NCBI GenBank assembly: GCA_963706595.1
Contig: OY970166.1
Span: 4,608,001 to 4,672,000, forward strand
DNA length: 64,000 bases
Direction of reading: 5' to 3'
Origin: an uncultured cyanobacterium
GTDB lineage: Bacteria; Cyanobacteriota; Cyanobacteriia; Cyanobacteriales; Nostocaceae
Shown: positions 20,831-28,585 of the stretch, one piece after another
How positions within the stretch are numbered: the stretch's first letter is position 1
Layout of the letters: each line of letters starts with the position of its first letter
The notes under the pieces: model-generated
Seen by the model: the letters and a program-made list of their open reading frames with translations, nothing else
The model's database searches: none
Told to the model about the DNA's origin: nothing
Translations under genes and position numbers: made by a program

Positions 20831-23800
20831 CTATAGTAAACTACTCAAGCGATCGCGCAAAATTTCGGCTTGTTTCTCAGCTTCTGCTAAAGATTCTCTC
20901 GCTCCCTTTACCACATCAGCCGGGGCTTTATCCACAAACTTAGGATTGCTTAATCTTGCACTCAAAGAATTAGCCTCTGCTTCCACTTTGTTGAGGCTTT
21001 TTTCCAGTTTGGCACGCAAAGTAGCAATATCTACCACATCACCACTCAAAGGAATTACCACTTGTACAGTTCCCACAACCCCAGAGATGGCATTTTCAGG
21101 TGCTTGTGGCTGTGGTAATTTGGTCTGTAACATGGCTTTGGGAGGGGTTGGTGGGAAAAACTTCGCCCAGAACTTTTGTCTAGCCTCCGCTTTCAGGAGT
21201 ATTTGGATAACAAACCAAGATGTATAACCCAAACCAACTATTTCCAAGAATTTACCGATAACGGGAATTTGATAAACCGTATTCCCCGCAACCAAACCTA
21301 TCCTCGCAAAGACAAGCCCCGCGATAACAAAACCAATTGTCTTCAAACCCCTCTGAGGTTTTTTCTCCACAACTTCAGCGCTGGTTTCCTCTGGAATAGC
21401 CGCTTGTTGAACACCAGCACTTCGGCTGCGCTCAGTACAAGCAATAGTTAAATTCTCCACCTTGGCCAAATCTTGAATATAAGCCTGTCCAGCAGTGAGG
21501 ATTTGCTGTTCTTGGGGATTCTCAGTTTGTAAATTAGCGGTGATTTTCGCCCCTGGCTTAATATCCGCCTCGGCGCGTAAATTCCGAATTGTGCGAATTG
21601 TGCCAATTAGTAATTCAAACTGGGCTTCTAAATCAGGATTAATCAGGTTATTATCGGCTTCAGGATAGGCTTGTAAAGCTAAAGTTTGTAAGGAATCGGC
21701 TGGTTGTTGGGTGAGAGTTTGCCAAATTTCCTCAGTAATATGAGGCATTAAAGGATGCAGTAATTTTAAAATCCCTTCCAATACATAGCCCAGAATTTGT
21801 TGGGCTACCTGGCGCGATGCTGGGTCTGCATCTTTTTGTAACCGGGATTTGACTAATTCAATATACCAGTCACAGAAATCACCCCAAATAAATTCATACA
21901 GACCTTTTGCAGCTTCACCTAAACCATAGTTATCAATGTAATTACTCGTTTGGTTGATAACTTGATGATAACGGGAAATCATCCAGCGATCGCTTAATTC
22001 TGTAGCAATTGGTTCACCCAGTTGTGCTGGAGTTTGTCCATCCAAATTCATCATTACAAATCGGGCTGCATTCCACAACTTATTCGCAAAGTTGCGCGAA
22101 GCTTCCACCGATGCAGACTCATCCTTTTTGCGGTCATACTCCAAGCGGATATTTTGACCCGCACCCGCAACTTCTTTAATTAAGGTATAGCGCAGCGCAT
22201 CAGTCCCATATTTGTCAATTAATAACAGTGGGTCAATCCCATTACCTTTAGTCTTTGACATTTTCTGACCATTTTCATCCAGCACTAAGCCGTGGATGTA
22301 AACATCATTAAATGGCATTTTCCCAGTAAAGTGTCCCGCCATCATCGTCATTCTGGCTACCCAGAAAAAGATGATATCAAAGCCAGTGACTAAAGTACTG
22401 TTAGGGTAATAAGTTGCTAAATCCTGAGTTTGTTCAGGCCAGCCCAAAGTAGAAAACGGCCAGAGTCCAGAAGAGAACCAAGTATCCAATACATCTGGGT
22501 CTTGTTCTAACTTGACATCTGCCCCAAATCGTGATTTAGCTTTTTCCCAAGCCTCATCGACTGATTTGGCGACGATAAACGGCGTATTATCGGTAATTTC
22601 ACCACCAGTTTCACTGACAGCATACCAAGCCGGAATTTGATGACCCCACCACAATTGACGAGAGATACACCAATCTTTTAACTTGACTAACCAATCACGA
22701 TAAACCTTAGTCCAGCGTTGGGGGACAAACTCTGGAGAATTTTGATTATCGAGAAATTTTAAGGCTTTATCAGCCATTGGGCGAATTTTGACAAACCACT
22801 GAGTAGATAATAATGGTTCAACTGGTACTTTACCGCGATCGCTATAAGGAACAGTATGCTTATAATCCTCCACCTTCACCAGCACACCATCGGCTTCTAA
22901 GCGAGAAACCACATTTTTTCGAGCCACAAAGCGGTCTTGTCCTTGGAACTCCCCAGCGTTATCATTGAGAGTCCCGTCCTTATTCATAATATTGATTGAC
23001 GGCAGATTGTGACGCTTACCCATTTCAAAATCATTCGGGTCATGGGCTGGAGTCACTTTTACACAACCAGTCCCAAATTTCGGGTCAACAAACTCATCAC
23101 CAATAATCGGAATTTCCCGATTCATAATTGGCAGAGTTAAGGTTTTGCCAATCAAATGTTTATATCTGTCATCATTGGGATTAACCGCCACACCTGTATC
23201 ACCCAGCATAGTTTCTGGTCGAGTTGTCGCCACTTCCACAAATCCAGAATTATCACTGAGGGGATAGCGGAAATGCCAAAGATTCCCATCAACTTCTTGA
23301 TTATCCACTTCCACATCAGACACCGCCGACATAGAAGCCGGACACCAATTGACTAAGTATTCGCCACGATAAATTAATCCTGATTCGTAGAGACTGACAA
23401 AAGCTTCCAGAACAGCTTGCGATAAACCTTCATCTAAAGTGAACCGTTCCCGTGTCCAGTCAACGGAGACACCCAGGCGTTTTAACTGATTCACAATTGT
23501 ACCCTCAGAATCGGCTTTCCATTGCCAAGCCCGTTCTAAGAATTGTTCGCGTCCCAGTTCGTAGCGAGTTTTACCTTCTTTTTTGAGTTGTTTTTCCAAC
23601 ATCGTGTGAACGGCGATGCTGGCGTGGTCGGTTCCCGGAACCCAGAGAGTATTGCGCCCTTTCATGCGGTGGTAGCGGATGAGGGTATCAATTAAGGCGC
23701 TTTCAAAGGCGTGACCCATGTGTAAACTGCCGGTGACGTTGGGAGGGGGAATCACGATGCAGTAAGGTTCACCGGGGTGATTGGGGTCAGCTTTATAGAC

Positions 23801-23887
23801 TTGGTTTTCTTCCCAAAATTTTTGCCATTTGGCTTCGGTGGTGAATGCGTCGTAGAGACTAGGGAGGTTGGTAATGTTTGCGGTCAT
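20831..23887 (-). CDS. valS: Valyl-tRNA synthetase with inserted CAAD membrane-anchor domain
   Basis: [18 protein letters not shown], two-TM CAAD segment ([19 protein letters not shown]) before the C-terminal coiled coil. Confidence 0.97.
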
Positions 23888-23941
23888 GCTGGGAATACTA
23901 ATTGTGGAGGGACTTTAGTAAATTTTGCCATAGGGGGGAGA

Positions 23942-24430
23942 GGGGTTGATGGAAAAAACGAACCGCCAAGTCGCCAAGTACGCCAAGAGAGGGGAGCCAA
24001 GTCAGGAAGTAGATAGGCTGGCTTATGCTGTGATTGGAGCAGCGCTTGAGGTACATCAACTGTTGGGGCCTGGGTTTTTGGAGCAAGTGTATAAGGAGGC
24101 GTTGATTATAGAATTGTTCAGGCGCGGGATACCTCATGAATTTGAAAAGCCTGTAACAGTAAATTACAAAGGACATGAAGTAGGTACAGGGAGATTAGAT
24201 TTTTTAATAGCCAATTGTCTCATTGTGGAATTGAAAGCTGTCCAGAACCTAGCCCCAATACACGAAGCCCAAGTCCTCTCTTACCTAAAAATGACCAAAC
24301 ACCCACTCGCCCTCCTCATCAACTTTAACGTCCCCCTCCTCAAAGACGGCATCAAACGAATCATCCTCACCTCCTAACTCCTCCCTTGGCGTACTTGGCG
24401 ACTTGGCGGTTCGTTTTTTCCATCAACCCC
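23942..24430. repeat. Perfect 46-bp inverted repeat (23942-23987 / 24385-24430) bracketing the GxxExxY gene
   Basis: GGGGTTGATGGAAAAAACGAACCGCCAAGTCGCCAAGTACGCCAAG and its exact reverse complement. Confidence 0.95.
23949..24377 (+). CDS. GxxExxY family protein (PD-(D/E)XK nuclease superfamily)
   Basis: LGPGFLEQVY, GRLDFL...IVELKAV, HEAQVLSYL, LLINF. Confidence 0.92.
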   Translation: MEKTNRQVAKYAKRGEPSQEVDRLAYAVIGAALEVHQLLGPGFLEQVYKEALIIELFRRGIPHEFEKPVTVNYKGHEVGTGRLDFLIANCLIVELKAVQNLAPIHEAQVLSYLKMTKHPLALLINFNVPLLKDGIKRIILTS

Positions 24431-25672
24431 CCGCATAGCCAAAAGCGCCGAACCAAAAGCAGCCTCAGTATGCACCGAAGAAACCACAGACACCCCTAAA
24501 ACACCTTCCCGAATCGCACACCAAGCACTATTCCCCGCCCCACCCCCAGCCGTATAAACACGAATTAACCTATCCGCACCCATTTCCTGCAACAAACCAT
24601 ACCCACGCCCCTCAATCCTAGCCATACCTTCCAACAACCCATGCAAAAACGCCACAGGATCATCAGGACGTGGTGATAATCGTGGTAGTAAATCGGGATC
24701 ATTAATGGGAAAGCGATCGCCTGCTCGCAACAAGGGATAATAATCTAACCCACTGGCTGTAGTAACATCAATCTCGCCGCTAAACCTTTCCAACTCAGCC
24801 GCACTAAAAAAATGCTTTAGCACAGCCCCCCCAGTATTAGAAGCCCCTCCAGTCAGCCATAAGTTCCCCAATCGATGACTGTAGATACCGTATCGTGAAT
24901 CCTCCACACGCGTCCGACTCAATAATTTAACTACCAACGTTGAACCTAAAGAAGTCACAGCTTCCCCCGGCGATTTAGCCCCACTAGCCAAAAAAGCCGC
25001 AATACTATCAGTTGTCCCAGCACAAACTAAACAATCATCAGGAAAATTGAACTGAGTGGCAATTTCCGGGCGTAATTTGGCTATAGGAGTACCAGGAGTT
25101 AAAACTTTTGGTAGCTGAATCGGTAATTGTAATTTCTCCAGCCATGCTGGATATTTTAACTGCTCCACATCATAGCCCAGCTTTAACGCGTTGTGATAAT
25201 CGCTAATTCCCAAATAGCCATGTAGCAGAAATCCTAACCAATCGGCTTGATGCAGAAAATATTTCGCCTGACTAAAACTAGGTTGTTGCATCATCCACAA
25301 CAATTTAGCCAAACTTGAAGTAGCGCTTAATACATTATGATGCGGTGGTGCAATATTTTTCAACTGCTCCAGCACCACTGCTCCCCGTGCATCGTTGTAC
25401 AGTAAAGGTGCATCTACAGGCTTACCAGCAGCATCAGTTAGCAAGACTGTGGATGACGTACCATTAATAGCGATCGCCTTGACTTCTCGGCGCAATTTCT
25501 CAGGTATTTTTGCCAGCAGTGTAAATAAAGCCGTCTCCCAAGCAGTTGCTAAATCCGAAACAGCCTCATCTAGCCAAGGATACTTGATTTCTGCTTCGGT
25601 GCTGGCTTCACGATTAATCACCACACCCCTAACGCCAGAAGTACCAAAATCGATCCCCAAATAAAAATTCAT
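24374..25672 (-). CDS. FGGY-family carbohydrate kinase
   Basis: LGIDFGTSG, GTTDSIAAFLA, SLGSTL; C-terminus reads through the inverted repeat. Confidence 0.9.
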   Translation of the reverse strand: MNFYLGIDFGTSGVRGVVINREASTEAEIKYPWLDEAVSDLATAWETALFTLLAKIPEKLRREVKAIAINGTSSTVLLTDAAGKPVDAPLLYNDARGAVVLEQLKNIAPPHHNVLSATSSLAKLLWMMQQPSFSQAKYFLHQADWLGFLLHGYLGISDYHNALKLGYDVEQLKYPAWLEKLQLPIQLPKVLTPGTPIAKLRPEIATQFNFPDDCLVCAGTTDSIAAFLASGAKSPGEAVTSLGSTLVVKLLSRTRVEDSRYGIYSHRLGNLWLTGGASNTGGAVLKHFFSAAELERFSGEIDVTTASGLDYYPLLRAGDRFPINDPDLLPRLSPRPDDPVAFLHGLLEGMARIEGRGYGLLQEMGADRLIRVYTAGGGAGNSAWCAIREGVLGVSVVSSVHTEAAFGSALLAMRGVDGKNEPPSRQVRQGRS

Positions 25673-27307: not shown

Positions 27308-28585
27308 ATGCTTTACGGATGTCAGCAAAATTTAATTAGTCCAGACAACAAACTAAAAGCTTTGCTTGAATATGTTTGTACAGAAGCAAATAACTTGATT
27401 AATTGTGGAGTTTATTACAGTCGTCAATATTATTTTAAGACTGGCAAATTTCCTAGCAAAGCTGATTTACATAAACAATTAGGCACTATTCAGAAAAACA
27501 AGCACTATCAAGCTTTGTACTCTGATACAGCGCAGCAAATATTAACTGGAGTGGCTGAGTCCTTTAAGTCCTACGTGGGGCTGCTAAAAGGTATAAAAAA
27601 AGGAACTGTTACTCAAAAGCCAAGATTACCAAATTACAGAGTATCGGGTGGTTTAGCATTAGCAACTTTCACCGGACGCTCTCTTCAATTAAAAGACGGA
27701 AAAATACGGTTTCCGCTAGGTAGTTTGGTGAAAACCTGGTTTGGTGTGGATGCGTTTTATCTCCCAATGCCATCAAACCTGGATTTTAAATCTATTAGAG
27801 AAGTGAGAATCTTACCGCGAAACAGGTGTTTTTATGCCGAGTTTGTTGATCAACAACAGAGAGAAACTATCGAACTTGATAAATCAAAAGTTTTAGGGAT
27901 TGACCACGGAATAAACAATTGGCTAACCTGTGTTTCTAATGTAGGTACGTCCTTTATTGTGGATGGATTACATCTCAAAAGCTTAAATCAGTGGTACAAC
28001 AAATCGGTCGCCAAAATCAAAGAGAATAAACCTCAAGGTTTTTGGTCTAACAGACTTGCGGCAATCACAGAAAGGCGTAATAGACAGATGCGCGAGGCTG
28101 TAAATAAAGCAGCGAGAATTGTAATCAACCACTGCTTAGAAAACAAAATTGGTTCAATTGTTTTTGGTTGGAATACAGGTCAGAAAGACAGTGCTGATAT
28201 GGGTAAAAAGAACAATCAAAAGTTTGTTCAAATCCCCACAGCCAAACTAAAAAACCGGATTGAACAGTTCTGTGAAGAATCCGGAATAGATTTTATTGAA
28301 ACCGAAGAAAGCTATACCTCAAAATCATCGTTTTTAGATAATGATGTTCTACCTACATTTGGTGCAAAACCCGAAAGGTGGAAAAGTAGTGGTATCAGAA
28401 CAAATCGCGGTTTGTTTAAAACTTTAACTGGAATCAAAATAAATGCAGATTGTAACGGTGCTGCAAATATTATCCGCAAAGTAGCTACAATATTTAAGTT
28501 TAACTTAAGTGGAGTAGGTAGAGGCTGTTTGAGTCAGCCTAAGAAAGTTCTTTTATGGACTCTTCAGAAATCTCAGTGTCTTTAG
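27308..28585 (+). CDS. tnpB: RNA-guided endonuclease TnpB
   Basis: LGIDHGINN (RuvC-I), TEESYTSK, NADCNGA (RuvC-III). Confidence 0.92.
   Translation: MLYGCQQNLISPDNKLKALLEYVCTEANNLINCGVYYSRQYYFKTGKFPSKADLHKQLGTIQKNKHYQALYSDTAQQILTGVAESFKSYVGLLKGIKKGTVTQKPRLPNYRVSGGLALATFTGRSLQLKDGKIRFPLGSLVKTWFGVDAFYLPMPSNLDFKSIREVRILPRNRCFYAEFVDQQQRETIELDKSKVLGIDHGINNWLTCVSNVGTSFIVDGLHLKSLNQWYNKSVAKIKENKPQGFWSNRLAAITERRNRQMREAVNKAARIVINHCLENKIGSIVFGWNTGQKDSADMGKKNNQKFVQIPTAKLKNRIEQFCEESGIDFIETEESYTSKSSFLDNDVLPTFGAKPERWKSSGIRTNRGLFKTLTGIKINADCNGAANIIRKVATIFKFNLSGVGRGCLSQPKKVLLWTLQKSQCL

Follow-up and report, generated by a model that had tools for sequence, protein, structure and literature searches.

A polar repeat arm beside a GxxExxY gene is the unit of a one-strand G/T bias in a Nodularia-like cyanobacterial genome

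The window analysed here is a 64,000-nucleotide stretch of contig OY970166.1 (positions 4,608,001 to 4,672,000) from an uncultured cyanobacterium of the Nostocaceae, in which a small gene for a GxxExxY protein, a predicted nuclease, lies between valS and a gene for an FGGY-family kinase and is enclosed by a 51-nt inverted repeat whose left and right arms are 98% complementary. Base composition switches sharply across this gene, and a sequence-only reading of the window had placed the cause at the gene centre. We show that the unit of the bias is the polar repeat arm and not the gene centre, and that two inverted arms give the flip. Arms that stand alone elsewhere in the genome bias the same strand on both of their sides, and the flip is therefore the meeting of two opposite one-strand zones rather than the mark of a central break. 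We hold with considerable confidence that the phenomenon is polar to the arm, restricted to one strand and distinct from hypermutation. As to its origin, the reading that we favour, at a probability of about 0.45, is that the arm may determine the donor strand during transformation or recombination, in the manner of the Ssn/NTS system of Neisseria, mismatch handling then favouring G and T.

The host genome (G000) is closed, 5.57 Mb in size, and has Nodularia-like cyanobacteria as its nearest named relatives. Within it the flip is exceptional: the difference in G minus C between the left and right 500 nt is 201, where the genome standard deviation is 28.9, and this ranks second among all positions, the other top raw peaks that were inspected being mostly tandem arrays; restricted to synonymous sites, the flip ranks first. 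The four hand counts of the sequence-only reading (G22/C7, G21/C5, G6/C26 and G5/C28) are exact, and its placing of the switch inside one open reading frame (ORF), at about 24200, agrees with the flip zone located at 24164-24248 within the GxxExxY ORF, where 57 of the first 100 codons end in G or T and 3 of the last 43. It was equally correct that the skew reaches into synonymous sites of both neighbours. On the plus strand, 58 of 78 such sites in valS (23590-23860) are G or T against 36.8 expected (z 5.0), and 9 of 80 in the kinase gene (24420-24680) against 40.3 (z -7.3), the kinase shift falling to z -3.6 and -3.3 farther out. Expectations are genome values for each site class and gene strand, based on 4233 ORFs called by a simple script of our own and not by a trained gene finder. 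On the valS side, four-fold sites are rich in G only (23 G, 2 T, 8 A and 4 C; n=37), and several valS orthologs that have no GxxExxY gene upstream are likewise rich in C on the coding strand over codons 1-50 (for example 14/23 at L019, 15/20 at L022 and 12/23 at L026). The skew of those codons is therefore not specific to the present element, and the kinase gene is the cleaner case; the earlier expectation that orthologs without the element would be unskewed holds for the kinase and fails for this part of valS.

The arm core consists of three copies of a 7-mer spaced 8-9 nt apart, and arms are dispersed throughout G000, with 180 strict copies among 227 matches and 282 copies by a broader pattern, whereas 2 Mb of shuffled sequence gave no match. 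By the broader pattern 241 of the 282 are solo and there are 15 close inverted pairs. In the first 100 nt around 154 solo arms, the arm-bearing strand has a G/T excess of +0.211 upstream and +0.150 downstream, which dies away over 0.5-1.5 kb, G and T being favoured near an arm for about 0.3-1 kb; over 300 nt on either side the value is 0.104, compared with a maximum of 0.050 in 2000 shuffles of orientation. Both sides are positive at 53 of 89, the upstream side only at 14 and the downstream side only at 7. All 241 solo arms give +0.167 and +0.122 on the same strand within 150 nt, upstream and downstream strengths correlate (Spearman 0.62, n=168), and 155 of the 208 that could be scored are positive. 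Thirteen close converging pairs largely cancel, with a reduced mirror of +0.079/-0.075. A blind scan of 49,215 10-mers returned arm words as its top same-strand words. The bias occurs in all three synonymous classes (four-fold, NNY and NNR) and in genes on either strand, ranges from 0.077 to 0.101 across four gene arrangements and is indifferent to the neighbouring base, which bears out the claim that codon usage and transcription direction do not account for the skew; this meta-plot over solo repeats, which had been proposed alongside it, ties the skew to the element as the footprint of a local DNA process. Arm strength is also similar on the two replichores (0.089, n=110 vs 0.105, n=98; p 0.41), a weak test because the genome has no replichore skew.

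Several other causes were considered and rejected. An assembly or sequencing artefact is ruled out by the presence of the pattern in 10/10 same-genus genomes; contigs from four runs contained no joint that skips the GxxExxY gene, and these added only coverage by independent assemblies. Gene-end codon effects are too small, with genome-wide gradients within 0.008 and random in-gene controls at about zero; random intergenic controls give +0.026/-0.023, in the first 100 nt only. The HIP1 palindrome is not responsible, since +0.172/+0.107 is still obtained for the 126 solo arms that have no HIP1 site within 500 nt. Tandem heptamer arrays fail as a general cause, their footprints being inconsistent and at most 0.09.

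The bias follows the arm, and the arm is its cause rather than a mark of target choice. Across kinase codons 331-414, third-position G/T is 0.878 in the 11 genomes of the genus but 0.566 in orthologs from the family; the latter mean covers 26 of the 28, the two with directly downstream repeats, which look intermediate, being left out. The shift extends to the protein: fixed amino-acid changes in the last 84 codons gain G/T in 12 cases, lose it in one and are neutral in three, while elsewhere in the kinase the corresponding figures are 5/7/5 and 5/4/5. In one relative (G010) mcrBC has been inserted so that the GxxExxY gene is on one side of it and the kinase, with a copy of the right arm, on the other; mcrC, now beside the arm, has acquired the bias, with third-position G/T of 0.18-0.20 in its last 100 codons vs 0.49 upstream. 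Arms shared with G000 have G/T of 0.69-0.76 within 150 nt, and arms found only in a relative are weaker in G006 (0.58, vs 0.69 at shared arms) and in G021 (0.50-0.51, vs 0.75). The bias accumulates slowly; these values come from the first 100 of 131 arms in G006, 70 loci covering part of the 110 in G010, and 30 loci each from G021, G002, G003, G009 and G004. A second GxxExxY gene of G000, likewise between inverted arms, shows the same flip.

Substitution rates favour biased fixation over raised mutation. Near/far ratios were estimated at two-fold sites of 60 loci (1481 and 1352 near site pairs) and assume near-stationarity. A>G is 1.41 (1.02-1.95), where fixation bias predicts 1.47 and mutation alone 2.29; G>A is 0.62 (0.47-0.81), for which the predictions are 0.64 and 1.0. 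C>T is 0.85 (0.59-1.26), predicted at 1.30 and 1.73, and T>C is 0.49 (0.35-0.70), predicted at 0.75 and 1.0. Polarised singletons in sets of at least three genomes agree (A>G 1.14, G>A 0.67, C>T 0.77 (0.54-1.0), T>C 0.46), exchanges between G and T being unchanged at 1.07 and 0.90, and divergence near shared arms is not raised (0.88 of far, 0.78-0.99). With the caveats attached to such ratios, the pattern is one of biased fixation or biased repair and not of raised mutation. The raised C>T on the G/T-rich strand that deamination would leave was seen neither at two-fold sites (0.85) nor among singletons (0.77). The alternative suggestion of the sequence-only reading, local biased repair synthesis, comes close to the pattern found, in which G>A and T>C are reduced. 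An apparent excess of amino-to-keto transversions was dropped, since it rested on an assumption of reversibility.

Allele exchange at the locus itself is supported. Same-genus genomes are mosaics in which arm types (CGCCAAG, CGCAAAG and CACAGAG) and 5' gene halves have been swapped at the same site, and the distance of the divergent G004 from the others along the kinase falls towards the arm (0.47, 0.23, 0.16; genome-wide 0.32-0.34). Repeated cutting or homing here, as suggested by the sequence-only reading, is hypothetical. At L024 (G023), three tandem units of valS start, leader and arm stand upstream of valS, with no intact GxxExxY gene there.

At the protein level the GxxExxY gene product is an ordinary member of its family, with matches to PF13366 (PDDEXK_3; 137.6 bits against a cut-off of 22, E 3e-40) and TIGR04256 (142 bits against 35, E 1e-41); the arms and the footprint lie outside the family definition. 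G43, E46, Y49, D85, E95, K97 and Y113, which include the GxxExxY motif and D...ExK, are invariant in 38 sequences. A confident structure model (pLDDT 90) has PD-(D/E)XK enzymes as its neighbours (Cas4 SSO0001, lambda-type exonucleases and restriction enzymes) with no clear winner. Foldseek gave no match at E of 0.001 or less, its best being SSO0001 at about 1.0e-3, and in fold comparison VIA (Z 7.6, root-mean-square deviation 5.0 over 103 aligned) tied with BpuSI (Z 7.8, 2.7 over 92), NucS (Z 6.2) being a weak match among many. No NucS_C match was found in G000 and no sequence relative of solved structure was found, and a protein atlas search matched only the GxxExxY family itself, whose function is listed as unknown in PMC3424549.

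The sequence-only reading had proposed a comparison around all GxxExxY loci. Of 29 more such loci from the phylum, 25 flip with the same sign and four lack a positive flip; at L176 the arms appear by eye to be reversed. Among the 80 closest loci 75 occupy the same valS site and are therefore not independent. In three other cyanobacterial families, solo loci are positive on both sides in 16/22 (G156), 20/22 (G034), 16/16 (G132), 8/12 (G165) and 9/10 (G096) cases, the arms sampled being 22/29, 22/130, 21/109, 12/26 and 12/37 respectively. The Victivallales genome behind L108 has seven arm matches.

How could an arm act on one strand? We infer that the GxxExxY protein would recognise the arm, its putative site, and act on a single strand, in the way that SsnA treats NTS. 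Of homologous single-stranded DNA that is taken up or exchanged, just one strand would then serve as donor in the vicinity of an arm. In the ensuing heteroduplex, mismatches of the G.T and A.C types would be corrected unequally, and alleles with G or T on the arm strand would win; such strand-polarised biased gene conversion could fix even amino-acid changes in host genes. The pattern for this is SsnA, which cuts only the single strand that bears NTS and makes transforming DNA integrate less (PMC11893778); in transformation the donor is single-stranded and a heteroduplex is formed (PMC4059242). The host genus also has comEC, dprA and mutL in 11/11 genomes.

A number of observations weigh against this donor-strand reading. 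The action of GxxExxY on arms is a prediction, and the reading takes as its premise that G.T and A.C mismatches are corrected unequally. Unlike NTS, the arms fold into no hairpin, and an SRM-like repeat of G000 (16 and 13 copies) has no same-strand bias. Gene and footprint are imperfectly coupled: 121 genomes of the phylum divide into 19 with gene and arms, six with arms only, eight with the gene only, which carry other arm words, and 88 with neither, and the footprint is present in G165 and G096, where no GxxExxY gene turned up. The same arm word also occurs at 124 GC-rich loci from metagenomes (mean GC content 0.57, 91 with paired arms, ORFs crudely called), and these show almost no bias, the solo loci being positive in 14/25 with a mean of +0.019. 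Within G000, 53 of 208 scorable solo arms are not positive. A third GxxExxY gene (G000:C1:2884950-2885760) has a weak reversed skew in place of the flip; palindromic units of 70 nt, arranged in tandem and built on a different arm word, stand on either side of it, and its nearest arm, judged by eye, points outwards. Arms present only in G010 are not weaker within 150 nt (0.68-0.70, n=325 sites). Divergence near the six arms shared with G004 genome-wide is not lower (0.345 vs 0.321), and because there is no such genome-wide drop and exchanges between G and T are unchanged, arms in general are not established recombination hot spots. Finally, C>T falls below even the prediction of fixation bias, all pairwise comparisons share the G000 lineage, and the rate data fit fixation bias and weak selection alike.

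Strand-directed repair of the chromosome itself is the alternative to which we give most weight, although we consider it unlikely. Here a nick, or a protein sitting on the arm, would direct the correction of G.T mismatches towards the arm strand on both sides. Such mismatches could come from damage, from replication or from exchange among the chromosome copies of one cell, so that foreign DNA is unnecessary. It fits the geometry, the distance scale and the suppression of G>A and T>C; mutL is present, and mutH is absent in cyanobacteria (PMC5101192). A repeat family flanking a DUF559 gene, whose family is grouped with Vsr (PMC3424549), is also biased on the same strand. Yet if most mismatches were already corrected, A>G and C>T should rise far beyond the drop in their reverses, and C>T stands at 0.85; nor is there fold evidence for a mismatch nuclease beyond the weak, tied NucS match (Z 6.2).

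Two further explanations are both improbable. Weak selection on the DNA itself might keep the arm strand rich in G and T, or its complement C/A-rich and unstructured, around a protein loading site. In its favour, rates at A/G sites equal the selection formula and divergence is slightly lower near arms; opposed to it are the independence of the bias from gene strand and neighbouring bases and the driving of amino-acid changes in a host enzyme by 12 to 1, and we know of no benefit to the host. One-strand error-prone resynthesis, or long single-strand exposure through nick, gap and refill, would make A>G and C>T more frequent on the strand that carries the arm, and is consistent with the same-strand geometry, with the 1.4-1.5-fold rise in A>G in pairwise data and with the shift of transitions in both classes. 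It needs rises of 2.29-fold and 1.73-fold with reverse rates unchanged, whereas 1.41-fold and 0.85-fold were observed and reverse rates of 0.62-fold and 0.49-fold. It survives only with past bursts and constrained leftover sites, in which case G>A should by now exceed A>G to a greater degree near arms than far from them. That signal is weak: the counts near arms are 177 vs 127, and those far from arms 447 vs 448 and 566 vs 473.

That arms insert in orientation into sites already G/T-skewed, or that chance or codon usage is at work, is very improbable. On its side, orthologs of valS without an arm have C-rich codons 1-50, arms found only in G006 lie in DNA slightly skewed in both genomes (0.58) and those found only in G010 in strongly skewed DNA; on the other side, arm-less kinase orthologs are unskewed, mcrC acquired the bias, G021-only arms stand at 0.50-0.51 and the orientation shuffles are exceeded. 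The original proposal of recurrent double-strand breaks at the gene centre, with 5' ends resected and both 3' tails deaminated, predicts the polarity at this one locus, and close converging pairs do retain a small mirror component, but it has hardly any standing left, since solo arms bias the same strand on both sides where a break would give a mirror, C>T is 0.85 where 1.73-fold is needed, divergence is not raised, and the bias stays with the arm when the gene is replaced by mcrC.

The arrangement resembles known systems in part. As in Ssn/NTS-SRM (PMC11893778), a small single-domain nuclease gene is flanked by repeats that are also dispersed genome-wide in hundreds of scattered copies, the site is polar and the host has natural-competence genes; unlike Ssn, GxxExxY is of the PD-(D/E)XK type (PF13366) and not GIY-YIG (cd10448), the arms are tandem 7-mers without a hairpin of their own, its activity on them is a prediction, and the excerpt of PMC11893778 describes no compositional footprint. 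Folding of the four arm strands was no better than that of shuffles (z +0.4 to +1.2; left arm +0.7 and +1.2). As in REP/REPIN-RAYT (PMC3116915), an enzyme gene lies beside its repeats, many copies lack a gene, and occurrence is patchy between close genomes; RAYT, however, is an IS200-like HUH tyrosine transposase, a family to which GxxExxY does not belong, and REPs are palindromes, mostly doublets, whereas most arms in G000 are solo, although most of the metagenome loci are paired. Homing endonuclease elements were compared through the low-divergence tract of G004, the mosaic alleles and the shared valS site. Replication keto skew involves the same base classes (G/T vs A/C), but this genome has no replichore skew.

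GC-biased gene conversion acts at recombination hot spots. The bias at arms is like it in that forward rates go up and reverse rates down, the effect decays locally and amino-acid changes are carried along, and unlike it in opposing G/T to A/C on one strand, rather than G/C to A/T on both, and in being anchored on a polar motif.

Other repeats of G000 carry skews of their own. HIP1, with 4323 sites, has a skew of the same base classes that is mirror-shaped and five times weaker than the arm bias: the strand running towards it is G/T-rich (+0.034 on the left and -0.035 on the right over 100 nt). This skew declines within about 1.5 kb, has a positive value in 55/55 blocks of 100 kb and is highest for CGATCG among 39 palindromic hexamers, random in-gene sites giving about zero. 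The DUF559 gene mentioned above (G000:C1:3384600-3385400) is flanked by a hairpin family, CCCCTCCCCGCAAGCGAGGAGGGG, with about 140 dispersed copies; it emerged as the next family in the blind 10-mer scan once arms were masked, and around it, too, G and T are in excess on the same strand to either side (+0.057/+0.053, 140 sites). About 230 copies of a palindrome, GTAGAGACG/TCGCGTCTCTAC, which we take to be REP-like, show a weak same-strand bias of about +0.03.

It is conceivable, though doubtful, that GxxExxY and DUF559 proteins form a second class, based on PD-(D/E)XK, of site- and strand-specific nucleases for single-stranded DNA or mismatches, whose dispersed sites would drive adjoining host genes by conversion towards G and T on one strand, an undescribed form of biased gene conversion with the strength to rewrite protein sequence. 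Were it true, arm footprints would map and date strand-specific recombination across cyanobacterial genomes. Independently of that reading, the footprint offers what is, as far as we could find, the first functional handle on a widespread nuclease family, with a probable site named and strand specificity predicted. A local force is rewriting silent and coding host sites near some 280 sites per genome, and it confounds analyses of codon bias, selection and phylogeny in these cyanobacteria. If the mechanism holds, it would be the bacterial counterpart of GC-biased gene conversion, polarised by strand, and might supply sequence-specific nucleases for single-stranded DNA. In the literature searched, which largely lacked subscription papers, no compositional footprint was described for these arms or for HIP1; where the excerpt of PMC13756078 speaks of 'skew', the word applies to sampling only. 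What is new here is the same-strand geometry of solo arms, the controls and the rate test. The small dispersed Nostoc repeats of Elhai and colleagues may include these arms.

Coordinates of the features discussed are collected in Table 1.

Table 1. Features of the locus and related sites (window positions unless a locus or genome is given).
Feature	Position	Strand	Remarks
valS	20831-23887	-	5' end 23590..23887: synonymous sites moved to G on plus strand (C on coding strand)
GxxExxY protein gene	23946..24377	+	PD-(D/E)XK fold; PF13366 and TIGR04256 matches; third positions G/T-rich in 5' part, C/A-rich in 3' part
FGGY-family kinase gene	24374-25672	-	3' part 24420..25000: synonymous and amino-acid-changing shift to G/T on coding strand, weaker with distance
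Left repeat arm	23942..23992	+	core ACCGCCAAG-T-CGCCAAG-TA-CGCCAAG at 23962-23987; plus strand G/T-rich on either side
Right repeat arm	24380..24430	-	core 24385-24410; minus strand G/T-rich on either side
Flip zone	24164..24248		near arm midpoint 24186
HIP1 palindrome	24712..24719		within kinase gene; own weaker mirror skew, too small for the flip
HIP1 sites in window region	21985, 22834, 24712, 25469, 26929
Mosaic arm types and gene halves	loci L003, L004, L007, L009, L010		same-genus genomes
Head-to-head tandem arrays	G000:C1:1009300, 77196, 583666, 891841, 1092726, 4840061		little footprint in flanking genes

Some details of the genes remain to be recorded. The left arm overlaps the start of the GxxExxY ORF and is translated as the protein N-terminus (23946-23992), ATG at 23949 being the likelier start codon. 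In G000 the kinase has no stop before the arm and continues for 18 extra codons through it, overlapping the GxxExxY stop (24374-24430). The mcrC gene of G010 (L121:1-1452) shares its ending, an LTS-stop and the arm, with the GxxExxY gene, which suggests that mcrBC came in by recombination at the arm. The C-terminal part of valS contains a CAAD insertion (PF14159; 21176-21360), known for cyanobacterial synthetases, and an IS605-type TnpB gene (PF01385, PF07282) lies at 27308-28585. Most of the other top raw flips in the genome are head-to-head intergenic arrays of the GGGGAGT and GGGGCAG types, the G-rich strands of which face the junction.

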